Below are positions 3,695-19,144 of a stretch of DNA of 64,000 bases, one piece after another (the stretch's first letter is position 1; each line of letters opens with the position of its first letter). The translations under genes and the position numbers were made by a program. The notes beneath the pieces are model-generated. The model saw only the letters and a list, made by a program, of their open reading frames with translations, did no database searches and was not told where the DNA came from. Source of the stretch: an uncultured Planctomycetota bacterium (GTDB lineage Bacteria; Planctomycetota; Planctomycetia; Pirellulales; Lacipirellulaceae); NCBI GenBank assembly GCA_963847875.1, contig CAWKBR010000005.1, positions 81,635-145,634 on the forward strand, read 5' to 3'.

Positions 3695-5300
3695 ATGCGA
3701 CGACGGTACATTTCTTCCGACACACTTTTTTGGCCGGCACACTTAGCGGCCTTCTGTCTCGCCCTCGCGCCGCTCGCCGCCGAGGCCAATCAATTCGTCA
3801 AGCTCGACTACAACTTGACGCTCAACAGCCGCTCGCGCGACACGGTGTTCATCGAGCTTTTCGACGACAAGCCGATTACGACCAGCAACTTCATGGCTTA
3901 TGTGAACGGCGGCAAGTACAACGGAATGTTCATGCACCGCTTGTCGCACGGCTTCGTGATGCAGGGTGGGGCATTCTATCCCCAGTATCAGATCGGAGCC
4001 CGCACTGACCGACATCCCCTATTCGCTCAAATCAAGTCCCGACGTGCAGGTCGATTTGGACGGCAATCCGGCCACGCCCAATCCAGAGATTGCGAATGAA
4101 TACTCGGTCGGCACGACTCGTTCGAATCTACGGGGAACGCTGGCAATGGCCCGCCGTAGCGGTGAGCCGAACAGCGCTTCCAGCCAATGGTTCGTGAGTT
4201 ACAAGAACAACTCGTTTCTGGACAGCGTCGACGGCGGCTTCACGGTGTTCGGCGAAGTTCGCGGCGACGGTATGAATTACTTCGACGCGCTCGACATTCT
4301 GCCAACTTCTAGCGCGGACGCAATGCACATCGTCGATCTCAATCAAGACGCCAATGACAATGGAAAACGAGACGATGTAGACGGCATAAATGGTCCATTT
4401 GGGAGTGCAGCCGATCCTTTAGATGGCGTGCCATTGCTGTTCGGCTATCTGGCCAATTTGGTCATCGTGCAAAACGCCGCGCGAATCGACTACTACGGAA
4501 ACACTGGCAGCAGCACCACGCTGAATTTCCCCAGCGGCGGACTGACCATCTCCACGCGCGACGCATTCCTCGACACGGGAACGACGCTGACCGGCTCGGG
4601 TGGACTGACAATCGGCGCGGGCCGCACGCTCGGTGTCCGCGAGGGGATCTTCGTCAATCGAAACGTCAATAACTTGGGCACGCTGGCGCCCGGCCTGCAA
4701 AACGCCGCGATCACGCTGCCGAGCTATCAACAGGGCGCCGGCGGAACGCTGGCGATCGACATTCGCGGCACGGCGGTCGACACGCATTACGATCGGCTGG
4801 CCGTGGCAGGGTCGGCACAATTGAGCGGCACGCTCGCGGTCGATTTCTTGAACCAGTACTTTCCCAAAGGAGGCGATGCGTTTACCGTGCTAACGGCCAG
4901 CTCGATCAGCGGCGACTTCACCAATTACAGCCTGCCGAATCTGTATCCGAGCGCGCGTTGGGCCATTGATAAGACTTCGACTGCCGTCACGCTGCGAGTC
5001 GTTGGGGGCGACTACGACGAAGACGGCAAAGTGGACGTCGCCGACTACAATCTTTGGAAGAGTACGTTTGGCACCGTCGTCACGAACTTCTCCGGCGCGG
5101 ACGGCAACGGCAACGGCATCGTCGATGCGGCCGACTACTCGATCTGGCGGAACTTCCTTGGTTACGTGGCTCCGCCGGGCAGCGGATCGGGCGCGTTGGC
5201 AGCCGACGGCGTGCCGGAACCGTGCTCCTTGCTGCTGCTGGTGATGGCTGCCGGCGTGTTGGCGCCGTTGGCTCGGCGCCGGCGCGTGGCACGGGCATAA
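3695..5300 (+). CDS. Second cyclophilin-type PPIase paralog with a beta-helix-like passenger region, dockerin-like repeats and PEP-CTERM; one frame change around 3962-3995
   Basis: ORF 3695..4099 carries the signal peptide plus ...FIELFDDKPITTSNFMAYVNGGKYNGMFMHRLSHGFVMQGG. ORF 3966..5300 continues with ...NLRGTLAMARRSGEPNSASSQWFVSYKNN...GGFTVFGEV. After that come G/T-rich repeats (GGLTISTRD..., GGLTIGAGRTLG...), then DYDEDGKVDVADYNLWKSTFG and DGNGNGIVDAADYSIWRNFLG, and finally VPEPCSLLLLV...RRRR. Confidence 0.75.
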
Positions 5301-5564
5301 CCACGTTGGCCCGCCCCGTCCACGAATACCAGGTGGCTCGTCTCCTGGAACGCTCGGGCGAAGCGTTCAACGACTGGGGGATCATCTACAGGCTAGTGCT
5401 CCGTCAAGTTTTAACTTCAAGGCTGACAAAGCAGTAGAGCCTCATAGCCCCGTTTCTTTATCGGACCAGGCAAAGTATCACGAATCCTCGCCGCTCTCTT
5501 TCCAACTGCATCGCGCCGGTGCACAATGCAGTGGTCTCCAACACGCAGACGGGGAATTCCATCG

Positions 5565-8015
5565 ATGACAGGAGTATACACCGGCGGCTGGTTCTTTCTG
5601 GCACTCGCTGCGATTCTCAGTTCGCATCTCGAAGTCGCTGAGCCGCGGTTGTCGAGCGACCGTTATCGTCTTGAGCTGCTGGCCCAAGAGCCCGACGTCG
5701 TCACGCCGATCGGCATGACGTTCGACAGCGCGGGGCGGCTGCTCGTGGTCGAATCGCACACGCACCAGCGGAAGGCAGACTACAAGGGCCCGACGCGCGA
5801 CCGCATCCGCATGTTCGCCGATTCCGACGGCGACGGTCGGCTCGACCAGTGGAGCACGTTTGCCGAGGGGTTTCTGCACGCGATGAACGTGCTCGCCCGG
5901 CCCGACGGCGGCGTCTACGTGCTGGCCCGACATCAAGTCGTACTCGTGCGCGACACCGACGGCGACGGCCACGCCGACCAGCAGCAAGAAATCATTCACC
6001 TCGAATCGGATGACGACTATCCGCACAACGGCTTGGGCGGCATCGCGCGGATGGCCGACGGCTCGCTGCTCATTTGCCTCGGCGAGAACCACGGCTTTGC
6101 GTTTACGATCACCGGTTCCGACGGCAGCAAGCTCTCCGGCACCGGCGGTTTCGATGGCGTGATCCACGCGACGGCCGACGGCGGCCAACTCGAGTGGCTG
6201 GCCCACGGGTGTTGGAACCCGTTCAGCATTTGCGTCGATCCGCGCGGACGGATGTTTGCGGTCGACAACGATCCGGACGCCAGCCCGCCCTGCCGGCTGC
6301 TGCACATTGTGCCGGGCGGCGACTATGGCTATCTCTACCAATACGGCCGGGCCGGCACCCATCCGCTGCAAGCCTGGAACGGCGAATTGCCCGGCACGCT
6401 GCCGATGGTCTGCGGCGTCGGCGAAGCGCCGACCGCGATCGTGGCCCACGCCGGCAGCCTGTGGGTCAGCAGTTGGGGCGACCATCGCGTCGAGCGCTAC
6501 ACTCTGGTGCCCCGCGGCGCGTCGTTCGGCGCCGACCGCGAGATCGTTGTGCAGGGCAACGCCGACTTCCGCCCGACCGGCATGGCCGTCGCCCCCGACG
6601 GCTCGATCTACTTCGGCGACTGGGTGCTCCGCGACTACGAAGTCCACGGCCACGGCCGGGTTTGGCGGCTCACACTGCCAAAGGACGAGTTGGCGAAGGT
6701 GACTCCGGCATTGTCAGCCGCCGAACAACAAGTCGCAGCGCTGACGCCTGCCGAGGCGGAAAAATCACTGGCGTCCGACGATCCTTACCTACATACGGCC
6801 GGCGTTTGGCAATTGGCCAAGCACGACGGTTCGCAACTCGACGCGCGCCGACAGCCAAGTGACGCGCGAGTGCGACTCGGCCATCTCGAAGCGCTCCGGC
6901 GACGGTATTCCCAACCAGCCGATGCGATTCTGCGCAACGCACTGGCCGACCAGTCGCCCGACGTGCGGCTCTACGCGGTCCGCTGGATCGCCGACGAGCG
7001 GTTGACGGCCCTCCGCGACGACGTGGCCCAGCTCCTCGACGGACCGCTGCCGAGCCCGCGCTACTATCTCGCCGTGCTTGGTTCCGTCGACTGGTTGGAC
7101 GATGATCCCAAGCTGCGAACCGCCGGCGTCAACGACGCGCTGTTGGTGCGGGAGCTGCGCAGCGAGCGGCGCTCGCCGGCCGTCCACGCGCTCGCGCTGC
7201 AACTGATTTCGCCGGACGACAAGTTTCTCACCACCGATCGGCTCGCCGGCTACCTGCAGGATGAGTACGAGCCGCTGCGGCTCGAGGCCGTCCGCACACT
7301 GGCCCAACAAACCAATCCCGAGCGCTTTACGCTCTTGGAATCGACGGCGCGCGACACCGCTCAGTCGGATGCCGTGCGAGCGGAGGCGCTCGTCGGCCTG
7401 GCCGCGGCGGCGAATCTCGCTCACGAGGTGCTGGAGGGATTCGCGGAGGACAAGAATCCAACGCTCCGGCACGAGGCGGAGCGTCTGTTGCGGCTCGCGC
7501 GGCTGCGGCCCGTGCCAATCGAAGCCAAGCCGCCGGCCGACGATCTCGCGGCCTGGAACCGTTTGCTCGCCGAGCCGGGCGATGCACAGGTGGGACGCAG
7601 GCTGTTCTTCAGCCCGGTGGGGCCGCGGTGCAGCGTGTGCCACGAGTACGATGGCCGCGGCGGACGGGTCGGCCCCGACCTGACGCAGATCTCGCGCAGC
7701 AGTTCCCGCGAGCGGATCATCGCCTCGATCCTGCAGCCCAGTCAGGAGATTGCGCCCCACTTTCGACCCTGGGTGCTCGTGACCAAAGACGGCAAGACGC
7801 GCACCGGCCTCCGCCTTGCCAAGGCGGGCGACGACGGCATCGAGCCCTACGTCGATTCCGAAGGCCACGAGTTCACGCTCGAGAGCGACGCAGTCGAAAC
7901 GCGCAGCACCAGCACGAACTCGATCATGCCCGACGGCCTCGAGACGATGCTCTCGATCGCCGACCTCCGCGATTTGGTGACATTCCTCACCGCGCCGCCT
8001 CCATCAGCCAATTAG
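5565..8015 (+). CDS. PVC-type heme-binding CxxCH protein (membrane-bound dehydrogenase-like beta-propeller + HEAT repeats + cytochrome c domain)
   Basis: The N-terminus has a signal or TM segment. The propeller region reads VVTPIGMTFDSAGRLLVVESHTH...DSDGDGRLD...DTDGDGHAD. HEAT-like repeats follow (SPDVRLYAVRWIAD...). The C-terminus is LFFSPVGPRCSVCHEYDGRGGRVGPDL...SIMP. The start is uncertain (ORF track 5526, ATG at 5565). Confidence 0.8.
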   Translation: MTGVYTGGWFFLALAAILSSHLEVAEPRLSSDRYRLELLAQEPDVVTPIGMTFDSAGRLLVVESHTHQRKADYKGPTRDRIRMFADSDGDGRLDQWSTFAEGFLHAMNVLARPDGGVYVLARHQVVLVRDTDGDGHADQQQEIIHLESDDDYPHNGLGGIARMADGSLLICLGENHGFAFTITGSDGSKLSGTGGFDGVIHATADGGQLEWLAHGCWNPFSICVDPRGRMFAVDNDPDASPPCRLLHIVPGGDYGYLYQYGRAGTHPLQAWNGELPGTLPMVCGVGEAPTAIVAHAGSLWVSSWGDHRVERYTLVPRGASFGADREIVVQGNADFRPTGMAVAPDGSIYFGDWVLRDYEVHGHGRVWRLTLPKDELAKVTPALSAAEQQVAALTPAEAEKSLASDDPYLHTAGVWQLAKHDGSQLDARRQPSDARVRLGHLEALRRRYSQPADAILRNALADQSPDVRLYAVRWIADERLTALRDDVAQLLDGPLPSPRYYLAVLGSVDWLDDDPKLRTAGVNDALLVRELRSERRSPAVHALALQLISPDDKFLTTDRLAGYLQDEYEPLRLEAVRTLAQQTNPERFTLLESTARDTAQSDAVRAEALVGLAAAANLAHEVLEGFAEDKNPTLRHEAERLLRLARLRPVPIEAKPPADDLAAWNRLLAEPGDAQVGRRLFFSPVGPRCSVCHEYDGRGGRVGPDLTQISRSSSRERIIASILQPSQEIAPHFRPWVLVTKDGKTRTGLRLAKAGDDGIEPYVDSEGHEFTLESDAVETRSTSTNSIMPDGLETMLSIADLRDLVTFLTAPPPSAN

Positions 8016-8071
8016 CCGCGTCGCTTGCAACGCGCGGATGCGCGGTCGCGCGTCGCAAGCGACGCGGCTAA
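8012..8071. repeat. Long palindrome/hairpin overlapping the stop codon of the heme protein gene
   Basis: TTAGCCGCGTCGCTTGC (8012-8028) pairs perfectly with GCAAGCGACGCGGCTAA (8055-8071). The stem extends a further 7 of 8 bp inward, giving about 25 bp of stem and a ~10-nt loop. No U-tract follows. Confidence 0.7.
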
Positions 8072-8251
8072 CTGCGCTAGCGGTGCCAGCATCCGCGACC
8101 CACCCCACTTCGCGCCGCCTTCCCAGCATCCGCGACCGGCAAACTTTGTTGGAGCCGCGCCATGCGACCCACCGATCCATATATCTTGTACGCGAAGGGG
8201 GACGGTACGCGCCGCGGCCGAAATCGGTCGGGGCCCGGTTGAGGTTCCCCC

Positions 8252-9121
8252 ATGTCCAGCGCATCTTCCACTTCCGGCATCGACGGCTCGCCGCGCGGCC
8301 CGATCATGGCGACGGCCGGCTCGGTCGCCGACCTCGGTGCCGTGACCATCCGCTGGGTCGAGATGCTCGGCGACATTTCGCTCTTCGCGCTAAGTACCAT
8401 TTCCTGGCTGCTGTCGCGGCGGCCGCGTCGTGGCACGCTGCTCAACTCGCTCTACAACATCGGCGTGCTGAGTCTGCCGGTGGTCGCGCTCACGGGCACC
8501 TTCATCGGCATGGTGCTCGCCGTCCAATCGTACACGCAGTTCAAGCAGTTCGGCTTCGAGACGCGGCTCGGCGCGCTGATCAACATGTCGATGTGCCGCG
8601 AGCTGGGGCCCGTGCTGGCCGCGACGATGCTCGCCGGCCGCGTCGGCAGCGCGATCGCCGCCGAGCTGGGCACGATGCGGATCACCGAGCAAATCGACGC
8701 GCTGGCCAGCATGGGCGCGAACCCGGTGCACTATCTCGTCGTGCCGCGGTTCCTCGGTTGCCTGTTGATGATCCCTTCGCTCACGCTGATGGCGGTGTTC
8801 ATGGGCGTCGTCGGCGGCGGCTACTACTCGATCCACGTGCTGGGCATCGACTCCTACCACTACTGGAGCAACTCCCGCAACATCGTCAGCAATTGGGACC
8901 TGTTCTACGGCATCATCAAGAGCGTGTTCTTCGGCGCCACGATCGCCATCGTCAGCTGCTATCGCGGATTCCATTGCGATCCGGGCGCGGAGGGCGTGGG
9001 TCGGGCCGCGACCACTGCCTTCGTCATGTCGTTCGTCGTGATCCTGATCCTCGATTTCGTGCTCAGCATTCTGCTCGACAACGTACACGACATGATCTGG
9101 CCGCAGATGATCAACGGATAG
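8252..9121 (+). CDS. mlaE: MlaE-family ABC transporter permease
   Basis: This is a full-length ORF. Motifs LNSLYNIGVLSLPVVALTGTFIGMVLAVQSY, CRELGPVLAATMLAGRVGSAIAAELGTMRITEQIDAL and PRFLGCLLMIPSLT are typical of MlaE/Ttg2B. Confidence 0.85.
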   Translation: MSSASSTSGIDGSPRGPIMATAGSVADLGAVTIRWVEMLGDISLFALSTISWLLSRRPRRGTLLNSLYNIGVLSLPVVALTGTFIGMVLAVQSYTQFKQFGFETRLGALINMSMCRELGPVLAATMLAGRVGSAIAAELGTMRITEQIDALASMGANPVHYLVVPRFLGCLLMIPSLTLMAVFMGVVGGGYYSIHVLGIDSYHYWSNSRNIVSNWDLFYGIIKSVFFGATIAIVSCYRGFHCDPGAEGVGRAATTAFVMSFVVILILDFVLSILLDNVHDMIWPQMING

Positions 9122-9163: not shown

Positions 9164-9991
9164 ATGGTCGCCGCGAATACCAACTCCACGGAACCGCTGA
9201 TCGCGCTGAGCGAGCTGAGCGTCCAGTTCGGCGCGCAGAGCGTGCTGCGCGAAATCGACCTGGTGATTCCCAGCGGCCAGACGCTGTCGATCATCGGCGA
9301 GAGCGGTTGCGGCAAGACGGTGCTCCTCAAGACGATTATCGGCCTGGTGCGGCCCAGCCGAGGCTACGTGACGTTCGACGGCCACCGGCTCGACGAACTC
9401 AACGACAAACAGATGACAGCCCAGCGGACTCGCTTTGGCTACGTGTTTCAGAACGCCGCCCTGTTCGACAGCATGACCGTCGCCGAGAACGTCGCCTTCC
9501 CGCTCGAGCAAAATCAAAACATGCGGTTCGACGCCGCTCGCGAGGCCGTGGCCGGCTATCTCGCCGAAGTCGGCCTCCCCGAAAGCGTGATGACCAAGAA
9601 ACCGGCCCAGCTATCGGGCGGCATGCGGAAGCGCGTCGGCCTCGCCCGGGCGCTGGCCATGAACCCGGAAGTGATCCTCTACGACGAGCCGACCACCGGC
9701 CTCGACCCGATCATGAGCGACGTCATCAACGAGCTGATCATCCGCACCCGCGAGCACCACGCCGTCACCAGCATCCTCGTCACGCACGACATGAAAAACG
9801 CCTTCAAAACCTCCGACCGCATCGTGATGCTCTACCCGCTCGCCCGGCTCGACGACCACGAACCGCAAATCATCTTCGACGGCACGCCGGCCGAAATCGA
9901 AACCTCGACCGACAAACGCGTCTCGCAATTCGTCCGCGGCGAAGCGGGCGAACGATTGATGGAAATGAGAGAAAAAGCTATTAGCTCTTAG
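9164..9991 (+). CDS. mlaF: MlaF-like ABC transporter ATP-binding protein
   Basis: Walker A is GESGCGKT, the ABC signature is LSGGMRKRVGLARAL, and Walker B is ILYDEPTTGLDP. It lies immediately downstream of mlaE. Confidence 0.85.
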   Translation: MVAANTNSTEPLIALSELSVQFGAQSVLREIDLVIPSGQTLSIIGESGCGKTVLLKTIIGLVRPSRGYVTFDGHRLDELNDKQMTAQRTRFGYVFQNAALFDSMTVAENVAFPLEQNQNMRFDAAREAVAGYLAEVGLPESVMTKKPAQLSGGMRKRVGLARALAMNPEVILYDEPTTGLDPIMSDVINELIIRTREHHAVTSILVTHDMKNAFKTSDRIVMLYPLARLDDHEPQIIFDGTPAEIETSTDKRVSQFVRGEAGERLMEMREKAISS

Positions 9992-10076: not shown

Positions 10077-11176
10077 ATGAACGACCGCACCAAACAATTT
10101 CGCGTCGGCGTCGTCGTGTTGGCCACGTCGATCATCGGGGGGATCCTCACGATGCTCAATGGGCCGACCTTCACCGAGTGGATTCCCGGCCTCAATCGGC
10201 ACTACCAGGTCACCATCGAGTTGCCGGAGGCCCCCGGCATCGGGCCTGACACGCCGATCCGCAAGAACGGCTTACTCATCGGCCGCGTCGCCGCCGTCGA
10301 AGATTTGCAGGACCACGTCGCGTTGAAGGCCAACATCGACGCCGGTAGCCTGCTCTACCCGAACTATCACGTGCAAGTCCGCACCACGCTGCTGGGCGAC
10401 GCCACCGTCGAGTTCGTGACGGCGCCCGTCCAGGCTGGGTACGCCGCCGGTCGGCAATGGCGCCGTTTTCACGGTCAGCAAGGGCGAAATCGCTCCCAGC
10501 CCCATGGATGCCATCGCCAATCTACAGGGCGACCTGAAGAAAATGATTGCGTCGCTGCGAAACCGCCGGCGACGAGGTCGGCAAGCTCGCCAAGACCGTC
10601 AACGAGGCCATCGGGCCCAACCCCGAGGCCGGCCGGATCCCCAAACTGCTCGACACGGCCGAAGTCTCGATGAAGAACTTGTCGCAGGCGGCCGAGACGA
10701 TGAACAAGTTCTTCGGCGATCCCGAGCTGATGAGCACCGTCCGCGAGGCCCGCATGACCATGAACGACGTCCGCGACGTCGCCCAAAAGGTCCAAGCACC
10801 CATCGACTCGATCGATCGCAACCTGAAAAACCTCGAAGGCTTCACCGAGCCGCTTGGCCGCAACGGCGAACAAGTCGCCCACTCGCTGATCGACGCCCTC
10901 AATGGCCTCAGCCGCGTCGTCGAGGAACTGACCGTGCTGACCGAAGCCCTCAACAACCGCAACGGCACGATCGGCCGGCTGATCCACGATCCCGCCGTCT
11001 ACGACAATCTCAACCGCCTGTTGTGCAATTCGAACCAGGTCGTCCTGCAGATCAGCGGCCTGACACAGCGGCTGAGGCCAGTCGTCGAAGACGCCCGCGT
11101 GTTCATGGACAAAATTGCCCGCGAACCGGGCCGCGTGGTGAGCGGCGCATTCTCGAACAGCCCCGGCATCAAATGA
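10077..11176 (+). CDS. mlaD: MlaD/MCE-family substrate-binding protein; two inferred 1-nt insertions (~10440, ~10561)
   Basis: The gene is spread over three frames. Frame 10077 holds the TM helix plus the MCE domain (YQVTIELPEAPGIGPDTPIRKNGLLIGRVAAVE...VRTTLLGDATVEF). The frame of 10504 reads TPPVGNGAVFTVSKGEIAPSPMDAIANLQGDLKKMIASL. The frame of 10547 reads TAGDEVGKLAKTVNEAI...GTIGRLIHDPAVYDNLN. The last ~10 codons and the stop lie inside a REP-like repeat. Confidence 0.75.
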
Positions 11177-11201: not shown

Positions 11202-13065
11202 AATCGCGCACTTGGCCGGACCGATCTCGTCACCTGCGCCAAAAGTGTCCCGCCTTAGGGTCCCACGTCGATTTGCCCATCACAATGCTTCCTTTGTCAC
11301 AACTTTTGACGGGTTTCGACCAACGGATTTCCGGACGGTGAGTTGGGTTCCTTTTCAACTATCGGGACGCGGTTTGGGCGTTGTCAGGTCAACTGGCGGG
11401 GCATCGTCCGACCAACTTCGCGAACGCGCGCGGAGGCGACGAAGACGGTCTACTTCGTCCTCATCGGCCCAGACGATCCAGCGCCCGTGGCGGCCGTGCA
11501 GTTATCGGGAATGAACCCAGCCCCGTCGTAGCCAAACATACAGCGTCGGCTGTGGCATGGCGAGGGAACCGGCTAGGTCGCCGAACCACCACTCATGAGG
11601 GCGAAGAAGTTGATCTGATTTCAACGCAGGAGGCCGTGATTCGCGGAGACCTCGTCGCGAAAGTAGTTTTCGCACCGTGTCACTGCGGAAGTGCGTTCGG
11701 CGTCTGGGCGTCCGCCAGCCCTCAAGCGTTAATTGTTCGGCCATCTCCCGAGTAGTTTGCCCTTGGTCGCTTAGTGTGACGATTCGTTTCATCAGTCGGT
11801 CGTAATCACGCAATTGCTGGTAACTCCCGACAGGCCGGATGAGTTCGTGCTGACTGGTCATGCCGCCCTTCCAGTGGATCGTAACGTCCACGTATTCGGT
11901 GTTGTCCTGCACAGCCACGACCACTTTCTCGATCAGATATCTCAGCGTCGTTTGCCGGTCCGCCGCCGTGGTGGTTGGCAGTTGCCACAGTGCAGGGATG
12001 TCGGAGGCGAGAGCGCGGATGCGGTTCTGATTGTCGTCAGAAAGCTCTGGCGGCTGCTCAGACTGAAAACGATCGTAGTCTTCTTCGAGTTGCCGCTGGA
12101 CTCGTAGTGCTTCCTCCCAGCCCCGTTCCAGCGGCGAGCTACCAACCGGTTTTCCGGCTCGACGACGTCATACTGGCGGGCCGCCCGCTCGGCTGCATAT
12201 CGGGCTCGCTCCAGTCGGTGCTTCCAGTGGCTGTGGAGACGTTCCCGTTCCTGCTGGATCTGCCTGGCCGCGGCCACGCTCAACTCCAACGAGGCCGGCT
12301 TCAACACTTCGAGAACTTGTCGACCAACCAGTTGGTCCAAGCCTCGTCCCGCCAGTTGTTGACATAGAGGTTCGCCGTACTCGATCTGCCGCCGTTCACA
12401 CAGGTAGGTCAGTCGTTTGGCGGGCCCGTCGTAATGCACCGTCATCCGGCAGCCACAATGACCGCATTCGATCAGGCCGCCCAACAAAGAGACCCCTTCA
12501 CGGACAGGGCCCCTTGATTCGGCTCGGCAGCGATTCTCTTGGATCTGCCGTTGATTCGCCTGGTAACGCTCCCATGAGATGTAAGCTGGGCAACGGTCAC
12601 GCAGTAGCACCAAGCATTCTTCGGCCGTAACGCGGATTCGTCCGGAATGCGGATGTCCCGGCCGCTTTCGGCGAGGATCGATGGGGCGGCGGCCATAGCA
12701 GTACGCCCCCGCGTAGACCGGATGATGCAGTATATTCAGCAGCGTCGCTCGGCAAGGGGGATGCCACTCGAGTTGCCCGCGGTTGGGGCCGCTGTGCGGC
12801 CGGATGCCCAGTTGGACTTGCTGATGCACCATGTAACGCAGCACCTTGTTGACGGTGCCGTACGCTTCAAACTTGTCGAACACGAGCTGCACCGCCGCAC
12901 GCGCCTGCTCATCCGGTTCCTCCGCCAATTCGCCAGAAGGCGAGCGAATGTAGCCAATCGGCCAATGGCAAAACAGATCGCCCCGCCGCGCCTTGTTCAG
13001 CCGTCCTTGGTTCAATCGATTGCGGAGGATGTGAAGCTCTGCTTCCGACATCGTTCCCTTGTAAC

Positions 13066-13524
13066 ATGCAACATAAAACACGAGCTTTACATGACCGAGG
13101 GCAATTCATCACAATTCGCCAAAGATTCGCCGCAAGTTGGGCGGCGATCATGCTAGCGTTCACGACATTTTCTGGCGGGAGGATGAGCCATGGGTCGTGC
13201 TTCAGTTGCCCTCGGGGTGCCGGACAGCAGTACCGGCATCATGGACGGATTTGTCATCAGAATACCTTTCTTCGCGAACGGAATCAGGCCGAAGTTCACC
13301 CTTTGGCGTTGATCGGATTGGCCAACCACTGTCGCAGCCTAAGGAGTCCAAGTCGAGGCTCGGGCAGCAGCACGCGCACCAAGCGGAAAGAGCAAGTAGT
13401 ATGTCAGCAACTTTGGTTTCAGCTTTCTCTTGATGAACGAACGCAATTCGGAAGCTGCTTCTCTCGCATGATTCTGAAATGTCTCAATGAAATCGATCAA
13501 GAAGATCAGGAGGTCAGAACATGA
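13066..13524 (+). CDS. Small ORF upstream of and overlapping the inner LSR start (true start unclear, possibly frameshifted)
   Basis: The C-terminal ~45 aa (RKEQVVCQQLWFQLSLDERTQFGSCFSRMILKCLNEIDQEDQEVRT*) align with the small ORF upstream of the outer LSR (RNHRLALNRLWRVLPESAQQETLQTLARMLAQQVEQFSGRKEVPHERS*). In both cases the stop overlaps the recombinase start codon. Confidence 0.3.
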   Translation: MQHKTRALHDRGQFITIRQRFAASWAAIMLAFTTFSGGRMSHGSCFSCPRGAGQQYRHHGRICHQNTFLRERNQAEVHPLALIGLANHCRSLRSPSRGSGSSTRTKRKEQVVCQQLWFQLSLDERTQFGSCFSRMILKCLNEIDQEDQEVRT

Positions 13525-15398
13525 TCAAGGCAACATCTGATTCCAAGGTTTGCAGCGAACATCTACGTCGTCAGGCGGTCGTTTACATTCGTCAGTCCAG
13601 TGCTCAGCAGGTTCGAAGAATCAAGAGAGTCGCCGACGGCAGTATGCGTTAGTGGAACGAGCCCAGACTCTCGGCTGGCCAGTCAAGTCGATCAAGTCGA
13701 TTGACGAAGATCAAGGGCGATCCGCGACCACCAGCACGCATCGGCAAGGATTCAAGAAGCTACTCGCAGAAGTTGGCGCAGGCCAGGTCGGTGTGGTGTT
13801 AGCCTTGGAGGCATCTCGGCTGGCTCGCTCCAATGCCGATTGGCATCGACTGGTCGAGATCTGCGTGGTGACGCAAACGCTACTGGCTGATGAAAACGCC
13901 GTGTACGATCCTCGGGAGCCCAACGATAGGCTCCTCCTCGGGGTAAAAGGAACGATCTCCGAGGCAGAGCTGTTTACGCTAAGGCAACGACTGCATCAAG
14001 GACGTTGGAACAAAGCCAAGCGAGGTGAACTGGTTCGTTCACTGCCCGTTGGCTATGTGAGCACAGAGACCGGCGAGGTCACGAAGAATCCCGATCGTCA
14101 GGTTCAACGCAGGCTCGAATACGTCTTTCGACTGTTTGCAAAGTGCAAGGTCGCACGTCGCGTCGTGACACAGTTGGTCGACGAGAAGCTGAAGATTCCC
14201 ACGAAGTCTGGGGCGGCCCTCGTCACGGAGAAGTGACGTGGAAGGAACCAGACCTGGCTGCCGTGATTCGTATACTGAAGAACCCAACGTATGCAGGCGC
14301 TTACGTGTACGGCCAATATGAATACGATTCATTTCACCGTTCGCCAACCAATGGCAAGGCGAAAGTTCATGTACGTACGATCGAAGACTGGCCTGTCTGT
14401 CTCAAGGGTTTCTATCCGGCGTACATCAGTTGGAAGCAGTTTGTGGAGAATCAGCGGATTCTTCGCTCGAACTGGTATCGCCACGACAGCCAAGGTGCGC
14501 CTCGCAAGGGACAGGCTCTGCTGCAGGGCATTGTCTATTGCGGATGCTGCGGAGCGAGGATGACGATTTTCCATTATTCGACGAAAGAGAAGCGGTCACC
14601 AGGTTACGGATGCGTTTATGATTACCAGCGTAAAGGAAGTCGTTCGACGTGCCAGATGATGAGCTCAATGCCCGTCGACGAAGCCGTTGCGAATGAGTTT
14701 CTCAACGTCGTCTCACCAGCCAAGATCGATATCGCAATTCAAGCATTGGAGGAGTTCGAGTCCAATCATCAGGAAGCTTGTCGACAATGGGACCTTCAGC
14801 TTCAGCAAGCTGATTATGAAGTCGAGTTGGCACGTCGTCGTTACGAAGCGGCAGATCCAGAAAACCGACTCGTGGCTGGTGAACTTGAATCACTTTGGGA
14901 AAACGCATTGCGCCAACGCGAGAAGCTGGAGCGTGAGCGGGACGAGCATGAAAGGAAGGAGGAGCTGCCGGTTCTCGAAAAAGACCGACAACGGATCAAA
15001 GAACTGTCGAGTGACTTGAAATGTGTGTGGAATGCGAGGACTACCTCCATGGAGGACCGAAAGACGCTGTTGCGATTCTTGATCAAACGTGTTCACCTCG
15101 ATGGCGTGACTGAAGACGGAAAGATCCGCATCGATATTGAGTGGCATACCGGCGGCAGACTTCAATAAAGATCGATCGCCCACTGGTTGGTGCGTGGGCA
15201 CCGAAGACCCCCGAGAAGGCTGTCGAACGAATGCGAGAGCTGATGCCCCACTACGAATACGCGACGATTGCGGCAAGGCTCAACGAAGAGGGATTCAAAA
15301 GCGCGAAGGGGTTGCCGTTTAATGCTATGATCGTTGGCTACGTGGTTCGTCGCCGAGGCTGGAATGAAAACGGGCATAGGATGCGCAAGCCGAAGTAA
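13521..15398 (+). CDS. Large serine recombinase (inner copy); three inferred 1-nt deletions (~13616, ~14212, ~15157)
   Basis: AGGAGG lies 7 nt upstream of the ATG at 13521. The protein reads MIKATSDSKVCSEHLRRQAVVYIRQSSAQQV | KNQESRRRQYALVERAQTLGW...IDEDQG...SRLARSNADWHRLVE...NDRLLLGVKGTISEAELFTLRQRLHQGR. Later come ...ILKNPTYAGAYVYG...GIVYCGCCGARMTIFHY...YGCVY, a coiled coil, and ...IDIEWHTGG | QTSIKIDRP.... With the three missing bases restored, the 1878 nt give 627 codons. Confidence 0.85.
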
Positions 15399-15917
15399 TT
15401 CAGGTGAGTTGAACTTGTGCTTTATCAAAAGGGCCACTTGAGACCCAACAGGAGGCGGTCGTTGTAGTCAGACGGATCGTAAAGACCATCCTGGTCCGCC
15501 AAGAGCGTCTGGAAGAGGGCGCACAGTTCCAGAAGCTGATGCCAGTCTTTGCACGAACGAGCTAGGCGGCTCATCTCGATGCCCAGTACTAACCCCACAT
15601 GATCCAGGCCTACCTCGGCCAATAGACGTTGAAACCCCCTACGACCTTCGGCCGACTGGGCACTCAGGCCCTGGTCCTCGTCGATCACCAACACTCGCTC
15701 CTCCGGCCAACCTAGCGCGACGGCTCGTCGAGCCAGCGCATACTGCATCTCTGCCGATTCACGGTTTGCCAATACCTGGTGTGGAGTTGACTGGCGTACA
15801 TAGACAATGGCCAAACGATCCAAGTGTTGGGGTCGGATTTTGATTGATCCGAAGGGATTGGCGACAGGCTCAGCACTCGCCAGGCGGGGAGCGATTGGTG
15901 CGTCTGCTGTCAGGGCT

Positions 15918-16109
15918 TCAGGAGCGCTCATGCGGCACCTCCTTCCGTCCCGAGAACTGCTCGACTTGCTGAGCCAGCATCCGAGCCAGCGTCTGCAACG
16001 TCTCTTGCTGTGCCGACTCCGGCAACACTCTCCAGAGCCGATTCAGGGCTAAACGGTGATTCCGCGTTTGTGCGCGGGGGGGGACAAAGTCTTCCCTGTC
16101 GAGTGACAT
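15918..16109 (-). CDS. Small ORF (63 aa) translationally coupled to the outer LSR
   Basis: AGGAGG plus 6 nt precedes the ATG at 16109. Its 3' end contains the AAGGAGG RBS of the LSR and overlaps the LSR ATG (15929-15931) by 14 nt. It is homologous to the ORF upstream of the inner LSR. Confidence 0.45.
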   Translation of the reverse strand: MSLDREDFVPPRAQTRNHRLALNRLWRVLPESAQQETLQTLARMLAQQVEQFSGRKEVPHERS

Positions 16110-16299
16110 GACGCACCTCCTGTGCTTTCGTGATGCCGCTGCTGGCATTGCTGCCACCAGCAGGCCAGTTTCAACAACGCCTCGGCGCACACTATAGGAC
16201 GATCGGCTCCGTTGATACAAGTTGAGCCTTTCGACGTAGTGTGCCGGGTATTCTTCACCGATCCTCCGCGGCGGCCAGGCAACATAGATCGTTCCCCGG

Positions 16300-17814
16300 T
16301 CACACGCCGGCCGACGTCACTGCGCGTGCGCCGTCCCACACGCTGTCCCGCTCGCCTGTCAACAGTCGTCTGCGGAATCGCAAGTGGCGACGACGCGTAA
16401 TCTCCACGAGCGGTTTCCAAATCAAGTGCGTCAGCCGATGCCTAATCAAGAGATACCAAAACAGGTTGGAGCGTTTGTAGAGATACGACATTGCCAAATA
16501 AGGTGGCACGCTGCGCCAATCGCAGGGGCGCCGCCGCCAAATCGATTGGTGTGAAAACAACCGCCGGTAGCACCAGGCGTAGCCGGCCGCCAATTGTGCC
16601 GGCGTCATCTGCCTAGGCTGGAACACCACGTGCCCCGTGTCGTACAGGTCCCATTGCTTGTGTAGCAGCCGTCCTTCGCGCTCCATCTGTTCAAACAGCG
16701 GCGTGCCCGGGTAGGGAGTCAAAATGTGAAAAGTCGCACACTCCAGTTGCTGCCGCTCAATCCAATCGACCGTGGTGTCGAACACGTCGGGCCGGTCATG
16801 ATCGAAGCCCAGCACAAAGCTGCCGTTCACCTGCACGCCGTTGCGATGAAAGATTTCGACACGTTGGGCATATTCTTCCGTTCGAGGGCTCTTCTTGTGC
16901 GCGGCGACGAGATTGTCGTTCTGAAGCGACTCGAAGCCCACAATCACGCCGGTACAACCGGCCAGTGCCATTTCGCGAACCAAATCAGGATCGTCGGTTA
17001 CGTCAATCGACACCGCAGCGCTCCAAATCTTTTCGACCGGTCGCAGCGCATGGCATAGTCGATACAAGTATTCCGGGCGCGAACCGAGGTTGTTATCGAC
17101 AAAAACGCCGTACGGTTGCGCATCGGCCTGGAACTCTGCCACGATTTGCTCGACGTCACGCACCAAGTACGGCATCTGCAGACCCTTGGTCGACAGATAA
17201 CAAAATCCGCAACGATTGTGGCAACCGCGCGTGGCGATCAGGCTCGACGTGGTGAGGAAACTGCGGCGCGGCAATAGCTCGCGGCGCGGCGCCGGATCGT
17301 CGCGATAGGGTCACCGATAGCCGCCGTGATATTCAGGCCGCAGGCTCCCAGCCGCGACGTCCTGCAAGATCTGAGGCCAGATTTGCACGCCGTCGCCAAT
17401 TGCCAATGCGTCGGCATGCGGGGCGGCCTCCGCCGGGCACGATAGAACGTGCAACCCACCAAGAATGACCGTCGCACCGCGTTCTCGATACCAGCGCGCA
17501 AGCTCATAGGCTCGATTGGCAAACGTCAAATGCACGCTAATGCCCACAACCTGCGGGAACGGTTCGCTAGGAGGCGGGCCTTGCAGCAAGTTTTCGTCCC
17601 AATACGCAACAGTCCAGTCCGGCGGAGTCGCGCCAGCCACACTCGTCAGTGCGAGCGTCGGCGTGAGCACGTGCTTGCCGAAGCTCGCGTGTGGATCCTT
17701 GGGATAAAACGGATTGATCAAGAGTACGTGACGAGTTCGCACCGGACTTGTTCTTTGCTGGTGATCGAGTGGCGGCGCAATGCGCATCGCGCGGGGAAAC
17801 CAGCGGGAATGCAT
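16300..17814 (-). CDS. B12-binding domain radical SAM protein (DUF4070-type C-terminus) with an in-frame TGA at 17311-17313
   Basis: The B12-binding part reads VLLINPFYPKD...VVGISVHLTFANRAYELARWYRERGATVILGGLH. The radical SAM core is IATRGCHNRCGFCY...GCTGVIVGFES. ORF-track entries 17311..17856 and 16300..17274 are in the same frame and are separated only by a TGA (...YHGGYR*PYRDDPAPRRELLPRRSF...). The start is placed at the ATG at 17814, which follows GAGGAG. Confidence 0.85.
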
Positions 17815-17852
17815 GAGTCGTCTCCTCGCTTGATTTGCAGTTCGATTTTCGT

Positions 17853-19144
17853 TCAATCCAGAACTTGAATTTCAGGGTAAAGCGTAGCCGAAATCTTAAG
17901 TGGCGAATGGCCTGTTCCCTTGAGGTACTCGTCGAAAAAGGTGTGCACGCAATACGCCGTAATAGCGAGCTGGCGACGCCCGTCGATACCAACAATTCCT
18001 AACATACGGAGTGTTCGCAGCACGACATGGCTTTTCAACAGGGCTCCGTCGTCGCTAAAAAGAAAGTGGTTCGCGCCGCGAATCACTATGAGAGCCCGTC
18101 TATCCGGTGGCAGACGCTCGTAAATCGATTGGATGTTGGCCTTGACCTCACGGCTCTCCGGGTCAGACTCGCGACTGTGGTCGCTGAGAAGGAACATGAA
18201 TGGCCGATCGATTCCCGCCTGAACGACGCTGCCCAGTGGAAGGCCGTCCACATCGATGGCCGCCTTGCATCGGGAATCCTCATGGCAGAACTGTGCGGCT
18301 TGCACCCCGCCAAAGGAATGGCCAAACACCCCGACTCGCGTCATGTCGAGACGTCCCGTGAACTTGCCGGAAGGATCCGACGCGTTCAGCCGCTCCAACT
18401 GATCGAGCACGAAGCCGATGTCGGCGGTCCAGGCGGCGAGTAGCTTCTTGCCGACACGATCAAGCGCCTGACCCGAATAGAATTCCGGGTTGTTCTTTGG
18501 CTCGCGTGTGATCACTCGGCCGTCGGGGAAGACAACGACTCCGGTGCGATACGGTGCATCAAAGCCCACGACCACGTAACCGTGACTGGCCAGGTCCTCC
18601 GCAAGCGTCGAGTAATTGACCACTTCAGCGGAAGCACCCCGCGCATGACCACCACCGGATACGATCGCTGCTGCGCAGACACCTCGGAGTTACGAAGACT
18701 GTGACCATGGACCAGCGACAGATCTCGCGTCAGGAGGTTAATCAAGGCGCCGCCACGGAGTTCGAATGCCGTTCGCCACGGAGCAGGCAGGTAGTCGTCC
18801 ATCGTTGCAGCTGCGTGCCCAGGATCTGCCGGATACCAGATCCAAACAAAGAGCTCACGTTTGGTTCCCGGAACTGGGGCCAACGTGTCCGGGTGCGATT
18901 CGTCGGCCCAAACGTAGGTCGTTCGGCCAACTGCAAATGGCCCCGTGGGGGTCGGGAGTGTCAGCTCGGTCCGGTGCTCCAACCAGAGCGACCCAAGCAG
19001 CGCTCCAACCCCGAGAACGCCGAGCAGCGCCAAGATTGCGAAGCTTTTGAATAACCGACGCACGAGCCGCGATTTGAACAGCTTCTGCCACAAGGTCGAG
19101 GGCAGGGGGGCGTCGGCGCTGACGGCTTTGATTGGCTCACCCAT
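17853..19144 (-). CDS. Alpha/beta hydrolase (PAF-acetylhydrolase/dienelactone hydrolase-like), one inferred G deletion at ~18639
   Basis: The N-terminal TM segment is FKSFAILALLGVLGVGALLG. The protein continues ...YPVVVMRG | GASAEVVNYSTLAEDLASHGYVVVGFDAPY, with the nucleophile elbow at GVFGHSFGG. It is split between ORF-track entries 18512..19465 and 17853..18623. Confidence 0.7.

Follow-up and report, generated by a model that had tools for sequence, protein, structure and literature searches.

How one large serine recombinase (LSR) gene came to lie inside another is the question raised by a locus in the DNA of an uncultured Planctomycetota bacterium (Lacipirellulaceae; assembly GCA_963847875.1, contig CAWKBR010000005.1, positions 81,635-145,634). 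In this stretch of 64,000 nt, referred to below as the window, an LSR gene on the minus strand is split in two and a second LSR gene, on the plus strand, occupies the gap. It is very likely that the two genes belong to two nested integrative elements resembling insertion sequences (ISs): an inner one from a clade that lives in LSR genes, and an outer one from a sister clade whose canonical targets are DDE transposase genes.

The nested elements

The elements and their LSR genes are laid out in the window as follows.

11268-16256, minus strand: outer LSR mini-element, 2610 bp without the insert, bounded at 11268-69 and 16255-56 by TC, which is GA on the gene strand.
15437-15931, minus strand: outer LSR N-terminal fragment, residues 1-165, last residues YNDRLLLGLK, 95% identical to residues 1-165 of the homologue P0001.
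11358-13060, minus strand: outer LSR C-terminal fragment, residues 165-732, lacking one nucleotide near 12132 and containing an in-frame TAG at 11502-11504.
13059-15439, plus strand: inner LSR mini-element, 2379 bp with one copy of the TT core, the cores being at 13059-60 and 15438-39; delimited by junction mapping, the outer frame being restored on its removal.
13521-15398, plus strand: inner LSR gene, ATG at 13521 and stop at 15396-15398, 625-626 codons after frame corrections.

The initial annotation had placed the break in the outer gene at ...YNDRLLLGLK / GTMSEAEL, and the open reading frame (ORF) map, the sequence and the six-frame translations agree with this base for base. The Lys codon of the N-terminal part is AAG (CTT on the plus strand, 15437-15439), and the C-terminal part opens with the Lys codon at 13060-13058 followed by GTMSEAELHILRNRL (GTMSEAEL...). 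Joining the halves restores the gene, as had been claimed: the product is collinear with uninterrupted homologues of 732 residues. It has thousands of relatives of ~732 aa, of which the best is P0001 (732 aa, 95% identical), whose sequence is unbroken across the site, ...YNDRLLLGLKGTMSEAELHILRNRL... (LGLKGTMSE). The outer family does not naturally end at LGLK, since the homologues are continuous to 732 aa. Most of the database relatives are on contigs of 2.5-3.3 kb, which fits repeats that break assemblies.

The insert, in which 2376 bp separate the CTT triplets at 13058-60 and 15437-39, contains the second LSR gene much as first described, with an ATG at 13521, 460 bp before the gene and 38 bp after it. 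The gene needs three 1-nt insertions to read through (at ~13613, ~14210 and ~15153, positions placed by protein alignment only), and the earlier description is to that extent qualified. An intact relative, P0121 (626 aa), is 98% identical, and among the matches listed ~120 more, of ~627 aa, are 67-85% identical; the family numbers in the thousands, mostly on contigs of 2.2-3 kb, as repeats would be. The lower GC content that had been estimated for the insert was borne out: it is 53.3%, while the outer element has 59.7% and the flanking DNA 61-64.5%.

The two reconstructed LSR proteins are 38% identical over 615 residues. Both have Resolvase, Recombinase and Zn_ribbon_recom domains, PF00239 being matched with E = 7e-21 (inner) and 7e-20 (outer), while PF07508 and PF13408 exceed the gathering score in both. 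Each protein therefore has the N-terminal catalytic domain and the C-terminal Recombinase and zinc ribbon regions by which the LSR family is recognised. The nucleophilic Ser stands in the contexts ...VVYIRQSS and ...VYVRQST, of which R, Q and S are invariant in both family alignments. The inner gene does carry, as had been noticed, a motif homologous to the site at which the outer gene is broken (NDRLLLGVKGTISEAELF).

Insertion into LSR genes across genomes

A search with an alignment of 21 inner-clade members yielded 72 loci from one-genome-per-species contigs, and one more, L075, was obtained by exact look-up. The inner clade is taken here as the 34 fetched loci with an LSR at least 47% identical to the inner one (47-98%), together with the window, giving 35. 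Comparison of the inner protein with these loci by tblastn showed that 30 of the 34 fetched loci, or 31 of 35 with the window, adjoin fragments of a different LSR gene. The fragments comprise residues ~1-143 on one side of the element and ~143-613 on the other, and the split is at K143-G144 where both junctions are mappable. Both host fragments are present in L004, L005, L007, L009-L012, L014, L016, L020, L021, L023, L025, L027, L031-L033, L059 and the window; a single fragment is found in 12 further loci, in most of which the contig ends on the other side.

The mappable junctions are all alike, with host sequence ...NDRLLLG(L/M)K(AAG), the element, and then GGN-ACN-ATG (G-T/A-M-S-E...). The host LSRs themselves are diverse, their C-terminal parts being 32-53% identical to P0001, and the carriers belong to at least seven phyla (Planctomycetota, Chloroflexota/Ktedonobacterales, Acidobacteriota, Gemmatimonadota, Gamma- and other Proteobacteria, Binatia, Anaerolineae and others). 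They include the cultured bacteria Paludisphaera soli JC670 and Thiorhodococcus mannitoliphagus DSM 18266, and the arrangement is also present on multi-Mb contigs of metagenome-assembled genomes (MAGs), such as a 5.5-Mb contig with L005, L009 and L032. No relatives of the inner clade were found in IMG/VR viral contigs. The suggestion of the initial annotation that there is a family of minimal LSR elements homing into LSR genes is thus upheld, since 31 of 35 loci adjoin LSR gene fragments and every mappable junction falls at one and the same codon pair, and the inner-type elements that it expected at this codon of other LSR genes were found in ~30 independent assemblies.

These results bear on the possibility that the split is an assembly chimera, two LSR genes having been mis-joined at a shared conserved sequence. 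The window assembly does look error-prone, with 1-nt deletions in several genes, and LSR paralogues have conserved motifs in common, but only CTT (2-4 bp) is common to the junctions, which is far under any assembler k-mer. The junctions are moreover reciprocal and restore the host frame exactly, and an identical architecture is seen in ~30 independent assemblies, including multi-Mb MAG contigs and isolate genomes. A chimera can be dismissed for practical purposes. Nor is the split a matter of chance, since the outer protein is collinear with P0001 and the junction recurs in those ~30 assemblies; insertion by an element that homes into LSR genes is the preferred explanation.

More distant LSR groups (L034-L074, 35-54% identity) showed no LSR-fragment flanks or RW.VE junctions, the exceptions being L037, L061 and some neighbouring intact IS copies. 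LSR genes are also interrupted in other ways: a 1.6-kb insert lies inside the inner-clade LSR gene of L059 (6456-8051), an intact IS5-like transposase (RWVVE-RTLAW) lies inside an LSR gene in L068 (7000-7923), and the LSR gene of L071 is likewise interrupted by another insertion.

Junctions and attachment sites

In all 16 loci with both junctions, AA is found on the host coding strand at both crossover points. The third base of the Lys codon, where the junctions differ in it (L004, L021, L025), goes with the right-hand arms, and the crossover was therefore placed at the AA dinucleotide. The triplet CTT, which had been proposed as the crossover core, is indeed present at both junctions of the window, but the core is AA (TT on the plus strand) and not the whole triplet. 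The polarity of AA relative to the host gene is constant in all subfamilies, as a non-palindromic core would require.

Inside the cores of the window element there is a pair of subterminal inverted repeats.

13072-13087: left subterminal inverted repeat CATAAAACACGAGCTT, 11 nt from the core.
15411-15426: right subterminal inverted repeat GAACTTGTGCTTTATC, 11 nt from the core.

Across loci, an inverted motif ATAA(A/G)GCAC(A/G)AG is found at both ends ~11 nt from the core, and the element's own attachment site (attP), as reconstructed, is near-palindromic around the core (for example GGGTCAC-AA-GTGACAC in L010). To judge from these repeats, the layout is what is expected of an LSR attP of ~56 bp. 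The window repeats have the general form of such sites, in which some 50 bp contain imperfect inverted repeats arranged symmetrically around the core, and the sequence across the joined ends of the element, which is the predicted circle junction, is ...AAAGGGCCA-CTT-GTAACATGC.... Each of the two nested elements has the same 2-bp core at both its junctions (AA for the inner, GA for the outer) and no target duplication.

The empty site that the initial annotation had called for was found in L001/L002, the DNA that encodes P0001. In L001 it differs by 1 nt from the site reconstructed for the window (54 nt compared), the stretch of the P0001 gene around it being ...CTCCTGTTGGGGCTCAAGGGAACGATGTCGGAAGC.... 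Target restoration is exact, L001 having empty sites both for the LSR gene and for a DDE transposase gene. In other respects also the elements are like ISs in general, which are shorter than ~3 kb and code for mobility functions alone: they are small (2.38 and 2.61 kb), consist of an LSR gene and one or two small ORFs, and are multi-copy with varied flanks. Contigs end at the element ends, as for repeats.

From this anatomy we infer that the mechanism is standard LSR recombination between attP and a target attachment site (attB). The inner element, of a ~2.4-kb clade, most likely excises as a circle, and its joined ends would form the ~56-bp attP, with the AA core in the middle, a spacer of 11 nt on either side of it and a 16-bp inverted repeat beyond each spacer. 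Integration would take place by LSR-catalysed attP × attB recombination with the crossover at the AA of the Lys codon, attB being the DNA for the most conserved LSR stretch, ...NDRLLLG(L/M)K / G(T/A)MSEAEL, where the E-helix begins. Insertion would split and silence the recombinase of the host element, and precise excision would restore it. In the window, the outer element (~2.6-kb clade, GA core) would have landed in an intergenic look-alike site between mlaD and a radical SAM gene, and the inner element would have invaded this outer copy later. The selective rationale may be that the landing site is conserved, multi-copy, horizontally travelling and neutral for the host.

A Thermoguttaceae MAG (CAXXFH010000004.1) has three inner-clade copies on one 5.5-Mb contig (L005, L009, L032). 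L005 and L032 share just 2429 bp with 99.1% identity, which amounts to the element plus ~25 bp on each side, so one and the same element occupies two distinct host LSR genes. Between L005 and L009 the match is 4486 bp long (4450-8935 in each) at 99.8% identity and takes in both invader and host, the host LSR element having an internal deletion. The DNA around the two copies of this composite is unrelated, and the nested pair has thus been copied or mobilised as a single unit, perhaps in trans.

The same copies speak to homology-dependent copying between paralogous LSR genes, in which the element would have spread by gene conversion or by homing as introns and inteins do, and not through the encoded recombinase. 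The target is a conserved coding motif, as it is for homing endonuclease genes, and the element carries a paralogue of its target. However, occupied sites in one genome share only ~25 bp beyond the element (2429 vs ~2380 bp), the host LSRs are just 32-53% identical, and no endonuclease or splicing signature was found. The ends, with their inverted repeat and 2-bp core, have the anatomy of LSR attachment sites. Copying of this kind is very unlikely, and site-specific integration by the encoded LSR is preferred.

L075 bears on recognition at the level of DNA. Its element (LSR 79% identical, 12.7-Mb contig; 7540-7600 and 9885-9950) is not in an LSR gene; it lies in an intergenic perfect palindrome, ATTCTTATAGGCCC-TT-CAGGGCCTATAAGAAT, whose centre, CCC-TT-CAGGGCC, is similar to the LSR-gene site of the window, GTTCCC-TT-GAGACCC. 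By this resemblance it looks like a pseudo-attB recognised at the DNA level.

At the codons on either side, the invaders' own genes always depart from the target, having V in place of L and I/L in place of M. In 32 of 32 inner-clade genes the homologous site reads NDRLLLG-V-K-GT-(I/L)-SEAE, with an Arg codon that is mostly AGR (in the inner element of the window, GGGGTAAAAGGAACGATCTCC); the targets have instead LG(L/M)K-GTM with CGN Arg codons. No nesting of one inner-type element in another was seen among the inner-clade loci. A subgroup of the outer clade (L081-L086, L090-L092, L094, L096, L135, L137) has LGLR-GMM(N/S)E, not LGLK-GTMSE, encoded by CTG CGN GGN ATG (Lys-to-Arg variant site, CTGCGTGGTATGATG). 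The genes that read LGLR-GMMNE should resist invasion because the CGN Arg codon removes the AA core, and the subgroup may represent escape variants. Self-immunity of the invaders and escape of the hosts are possible interpretations of these codon differences, and there may be an arms race between the invaders and potential host LSRs.

The outer clade and its transposase target

The outer element is 95.9% identical to L001/L002 DNA over 2613 bp. With the insert removed, the limits of this match are window positions 16256 and 11268, and the flanking DNA is unrelated on both sides. Since the similarity begins and ends exactly there, the outer unit is a discrete 2.61-kb element. It had been considered a unit of the same kind as the inner one; this is so as regards its compact layout, but it belongs to a sister clade whose usual target is DDE transposase genes and not LSR genes.

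When the element is removed from L001 one frame is restored, ...VTNLTWRSKRVVRFYNGRGTAE then QWIKEGKHAVQWTKLSCRTFKDNQ... (RFYNGRGTAE / QWIKEGK), which is that of a DDE_Tnp_1_4 transposase. The break is at the Glu of the Y-x2-R-x3-E-x6-K signature, and the DDE transposase site used by an outer-clade element reads ...CGCGGCACTGCCGAGCAATGGATCAAG.... When metagenomes were scanned with an alignment of 21 outer-clade proteins, 80 loci were found (47-62% identical), and in none of these 80 do LSR fragments flank the element. The longest flank ORFs are enriched in transposase domains, with DDE_Tnp_1 in 19 of 108 and also DDE_5, DDE_Tnp_1_4, DUF4096, Nterm_IS4 and Dimer_Tnp_Tn5. In 15 loci a transposase frame ends ...Y..RW.[VI][ED] exactly at the left end of the element, and in ~18 more such a transposase end is found at the right end on the other strand. 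At least 33 of the 80 loci are at that codon, and many of those remaining have a flank too short to judge. The target motifs resemble those of IS4-, IS5-, IS701- and IS1380-like transposases. From these alignments, the outer element appears to be a member of a sister clade that canonically inserts at the codon for the catalytic Glu, within the YxxRWxVE motif of DDE transposase genes.

Both habits meet in a triple nest in a Ktedonobacterales MAG (L025, 2100-7300; JBKQTH010000073.1), where an IS5-like transposase gene contains an outer-type element that in turn contains an inner-type one. The transposase reads ...HPKRWIVE, is followed by an outer-clade element split at LGL(K/N)-GT by an inner-clade element, and then resumes with RTFAWLLRNRRL... 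(RTFAW).

The right ends of L087, L089, L076, L084, L090 and L025 encode a look-alike of the left half of the target (for example ...WRHYGWQTE beside host LDIRSLK), and the outer-clade attP of L025 is a near-perfect palindrome, CTGGGTCCTC-GA-AAGGACCCAG. This would fit a binding motif for the recombinase domain that is common to all half-sites.

The target of the outer copy in the window, ...CGGAGGATCGGT-GA-CGTGGGACCC..., lies in the spacer between mlaD and the radical SAM gene and reads R-R-I-G-E. This pseudo-site (GGAGGATCGGTGACGTGGGACCC) is a weak, non-canonical intergenic look-alike of RRWVVE.

Small open reading frames and neighbouring genes

The elements had been called cargo-free. They carry no accessory genes, but two conserved small ORFs precede the inner LSR gene and one precedes the outer.

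13140-13390, plus strand: inner ORF-A, motif FWREDEPWVVLQLPSGxRTAVPASWTDL, frame-shifted past ~13270 in the window copy.
13396-13524, plus strand: inner ORF-B, motif LWFQLSLDERTQFGSCFSRMILK, its stop overlapping the LSR start codon (ATGA).
15918-16220, minus strand: outer small ORF of the ORF-B type, motif NRLWRVLPESAQQETLQTLARML, likely start Met at ~16109, overlapping the LSR start codon.

ORF-A and ORF-B lie in the ~450-bp leader of inner-clade elements (compared in 16 loci). ORF-A has ~100 aa in intact relatives, with motifs FWREDEPWVVLQLPSGRRTAVPASWTDLP and LLELARYC, and 65 homologues in databases (75-152 aa, mostly 94-109), all described as 'hypothetical'. ORF-B has ~50 aa and the motif LWFQLPxxERxRFGxCFSRMxLK. 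Mean entropies at codon positions 1/2/3 are 0.79/0.52/1.19 for ORF-A and 0.95/0.79/1.37 for ORF-B, and this excess of third-position variation is typical of real coding sequence. A small ORF with the motif LWxxLPxxxRQ, similar to ORF-B, lies upstream of the LSR gene throughout the outer clade, the window copy included. Neither ORF-A, ORF-B nor the outer small ORF has a match in Pfam, NCBIfam or PHROGs. An AlphaFold2 model of ORF-A (mean confidence score, pLDDT, 69) has a small three-stranded sheet and a long helix; in the PDB it has no significant match, only SH3/Tudor/KOW-like folds with a best E of 0.05, which is uninformative. ORF-A and ORF-B are candidates for a directionality factor or regulator. 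An Xis-like helix-turn-helix in the C-terminal tail of the outer LSR was also considered and dropped, as Pfam gave just a weak second 'Recombinase' match there.

The genes on either side of the outer element are as follows.

10077-11176: mlaD, its frame changing twice in ~200 nt (~10440-10560).
16300-17856: radical SAM gene (B12-binding and radical-SAM domains), with an in-frame TGA at 17311-17313, between its two domains.

The outer element is separated from mlaD by 91 bp and from the radical-SAM gene by 43 bp, and the spacer is 134 bp once the element is removed. No IS remnant was found in those two intergenic stretches, and tblastn and blastn of the region against the 64-kb window matched only the two LSR genes, so that there is no third copy of either element in it. 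Every indel in both window LSR genes is the loss of one base. Since mlaD and the radical-SAM gene are disrupted too, besides the 1-nt deletions in both LSR genes, the window assembly is probably indel-rich, and the disruptions probably reflect assembly error rather than general pseudogenisation. For this reason the frameshifts are not proof that the window copies are dead. The TAG at 11502-04 replaces a Gln of the outer homologues, and homology runs on to ~11358. Past the TAG (11358-11504) the conserved 47-residue tail of the family is still encoded (LHGRHGRWIVWADEDEVDRLRRLRARSRSWSDDAPPVDLTTPKPRPDS), which suggests that the TAG is recent or a base-call error.

Weighing of the evidence

A number of observations weigh against the reading of two homing LSR elements. 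Two inner-clade loci, L008 and L019, are without a second host fragment despite some flank, and four, L022, L026, L029 and L075, are without any host LSR fragment (the flank of L029 being too short to judge). In Paludisphaera soli JC670 (L018, 6001-9124) the element stands between two N-terminal LSR fragments that face opposite ways, and the dinucleotides found where AA is expected are CG and CA; from the arrangement, an inversion or another rearrangement seems to have taken place between two occupied sites. The orientation of the LSR gene relative to the host gene varies by subfamily, being on the same strand in L010, L011, L013, L016, L020 and L031 and opposite in most others. The outer copy in the window lies outside any transposase gene, and its 'canonical target' would be that of its relatives. 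Both window copies have broken frames and the outer a premature TAG, and these copies may be dead. Catalysis by the LSR and excision are deduced from anatomy, and no directionality factor was recognised among the small ORFs with Pfam, NCBIfam and PHROGs or by comparison of the moderate-confidence ORF-A model with the PDB.

Some of these observations could be explained if a low-specificity element had entered an LSR gene by chance, without homing: relatives such as L075, L022 and L026 are outside LSR genes, and the window outer copy is itself in a non-canonical site. Against this, 31 of 35 loci are at LSR fragments, at the same codon pair wherever mapped, in divergent hosts from at least seven phyla, and the target of the sister clade is equally sharp yet different. 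Such an accident is extremely improbable, and two clades with dedicated targets remain the preferred reading.

Relation to known elements

A close parallel is with gene-intervening LSR elements (cyanobacterial elements of the fdxN/nifK type, with XisF; Bacillus skin, SPbeta and gin), in which an LSR inside the element precisely interrupts a coding sequence and removal restores the frame. Some interruption elements of heterocystous cyanobacteria scarcely exceed the recombinase gene in size (PMC4874684). The targets of gene-intervening elements, however, are developmental or metabolic genes of the host, and excision takes place in cells undergoing terminal differentiation, whereas here the targets are catalytic-motif codons in the recombinase or transposase genes of other mobile elements and the habit is clade-wide in many phyla. 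The XisF model NF041201 gives 96 bits for P0121 and 92 bits for P0001, below its cut-off of 375, although it is still the best named NCBIfam match for both window LSRs.

This parallel raises the possibility that the inner element is a domesticated switch, a regulated intervening sequence whose excision would turn the outer recombinase on in certain conditions (cf. skin in sigK, SPbeta in spsM and the xisF element in fdxN). The architecture is that of the gene-intervening elements, a coding frame being interrupted precisely and reversibly; XisF is the best named match in NCBIfam; and the composite of host and inner element duplicated intact in one genome (L005/L009) indicates that nested pairs can persist and move. 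On the other hand, the interrupted genes belong to selfish elements without known host function, the same inner element is found in different host LSR genes, the distribution is patchy and multi-copy with contigs breaking at element ends as for repeats, and the XisF score is 96 bits against 375. A switch is unlikely, and mobile elements that home into the genes of other mobile elements are preferred.

Tn4451/Tn4453 (TnpX) and Tn5397 (TndX) are likewise moved by an LSR via a circular intermediate, as is proposed here, with a 2-bp core at both junctions. The core of the TnpX/TndX transposons is GA, like that of the outer clade. They carry cargo (catP; tet(M) and conjugation genes) and have relaxed target choice, whereas the window elements have no accessory genes and sharp targets. 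To our knowledge, targeting of recombinase or transposase genes is unreported for these transposons. No DUF4368 match was found in the window proteins, and their targets are specific GC-rich coding motifs; in the multi-targeting TnpX/TndX-like LSR clade most members have DUF4368 and target motifs are relaxed and AT-rich, according to Durrant et al. (PMC10083194).

Integrases of phages and integrative and conjugative elements (phiC31, Bxb1, A118, SprA) are also three-domain enzymes; their attP, of ~50 bp, contains imperfect inverted repeats, orientation is set by a central dinucleotide that is not palindromic, and the target site is not duplicated. Unlike the elements of such integrases, those of the window are of 2.4-2.6 kb, with no phage or conjugation genes, and no relatives were found in IMG/VR viral contigs. 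One large survey of the genes targeted by LSRs lists those of the Mg-chelatase, competence, secretion and HNH types as enriched, and recombinases and transposases are not in that list (PMC10083194).

The IS607 family resembles the window elements in small size, in a serine recombinase as mobility enzyme and in the lack of a terminal duplication. Its TnpA, however, belongs to the small serine recombinases, has its DNA-binding domain at the N-terminus and shows minimal target specificity, whereas here LSRs of 627-732 aa have Recombinase and zinc ribbon domains and sharp specificity. The window proteins fall outside this family, scoring 17 bits with NF033518 (cut-off 110) and having the catalytic domain first, then Recombinase and zinc ribbon. 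We know of no described IS family that uses an LSR, and literature searches gave no match either.

In their choice of site the elements are like homing endonuclease genes, inteins and group I/II introns, which occupy the most conserved critical codons of a widespread gene, a target that is always available and hard to mutate away. Their mechanism is altogether different, with no endonuclease and no dependence on splicing or homologous repair, and the product of the host gene is missing for as long as the element is in place. Full-text literature searches, whose coverage is incomplete so that absence is not proof, gave no published account of LSR elements that home into the genes of LSRs or DDE transposases. 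A lifestyle in which whole clades home into catalytic-motif codons in the mobility genes of other elements appears to be undescribed.

Conclusions

On balance, the two sister clades probably make up a class of IS-like, hyperparasitic LSR elements that has not been described before. The landing sites to which they have evolved would be catalytic-motif codons of the mobility enzymes of other elements, namely the E-helix Lys-Gly codons of LSRs and the codon for the DDE catalytic Glu in transposases of the IS4, IS5, IS701 and IS1380 types. They form true Russian dolls, and may silence their carrier yet ride along with it.

If this is correct, it adds a new ecological layer, in which the niche is the catalytic core of the transposase and recombinase genes of other elements. 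Such a niche would be conserved, multi-copy, horizontally mobile and free of cost to the host. Many of the recombinase and transposase genes that look 'broken' in genomes from soil and freshwater (Planctomycetota, Chloroflexota, Acidobacteriota and others) would be explained in this way, and the elements would be natural agents that inactivate insertion sequences and integrative elements. They would also supply dozens of natural LSR/attP/attB triples, with defined 2-bp cores and deeply sampled target variation, for studies of how LSRs read DNA and for orthogonal integrase toolkits. The cultured carriers, Paludisphaera soli JC670 and Thiorhodococcus mannitoliphagus DSM 18266, make the system directly testable.

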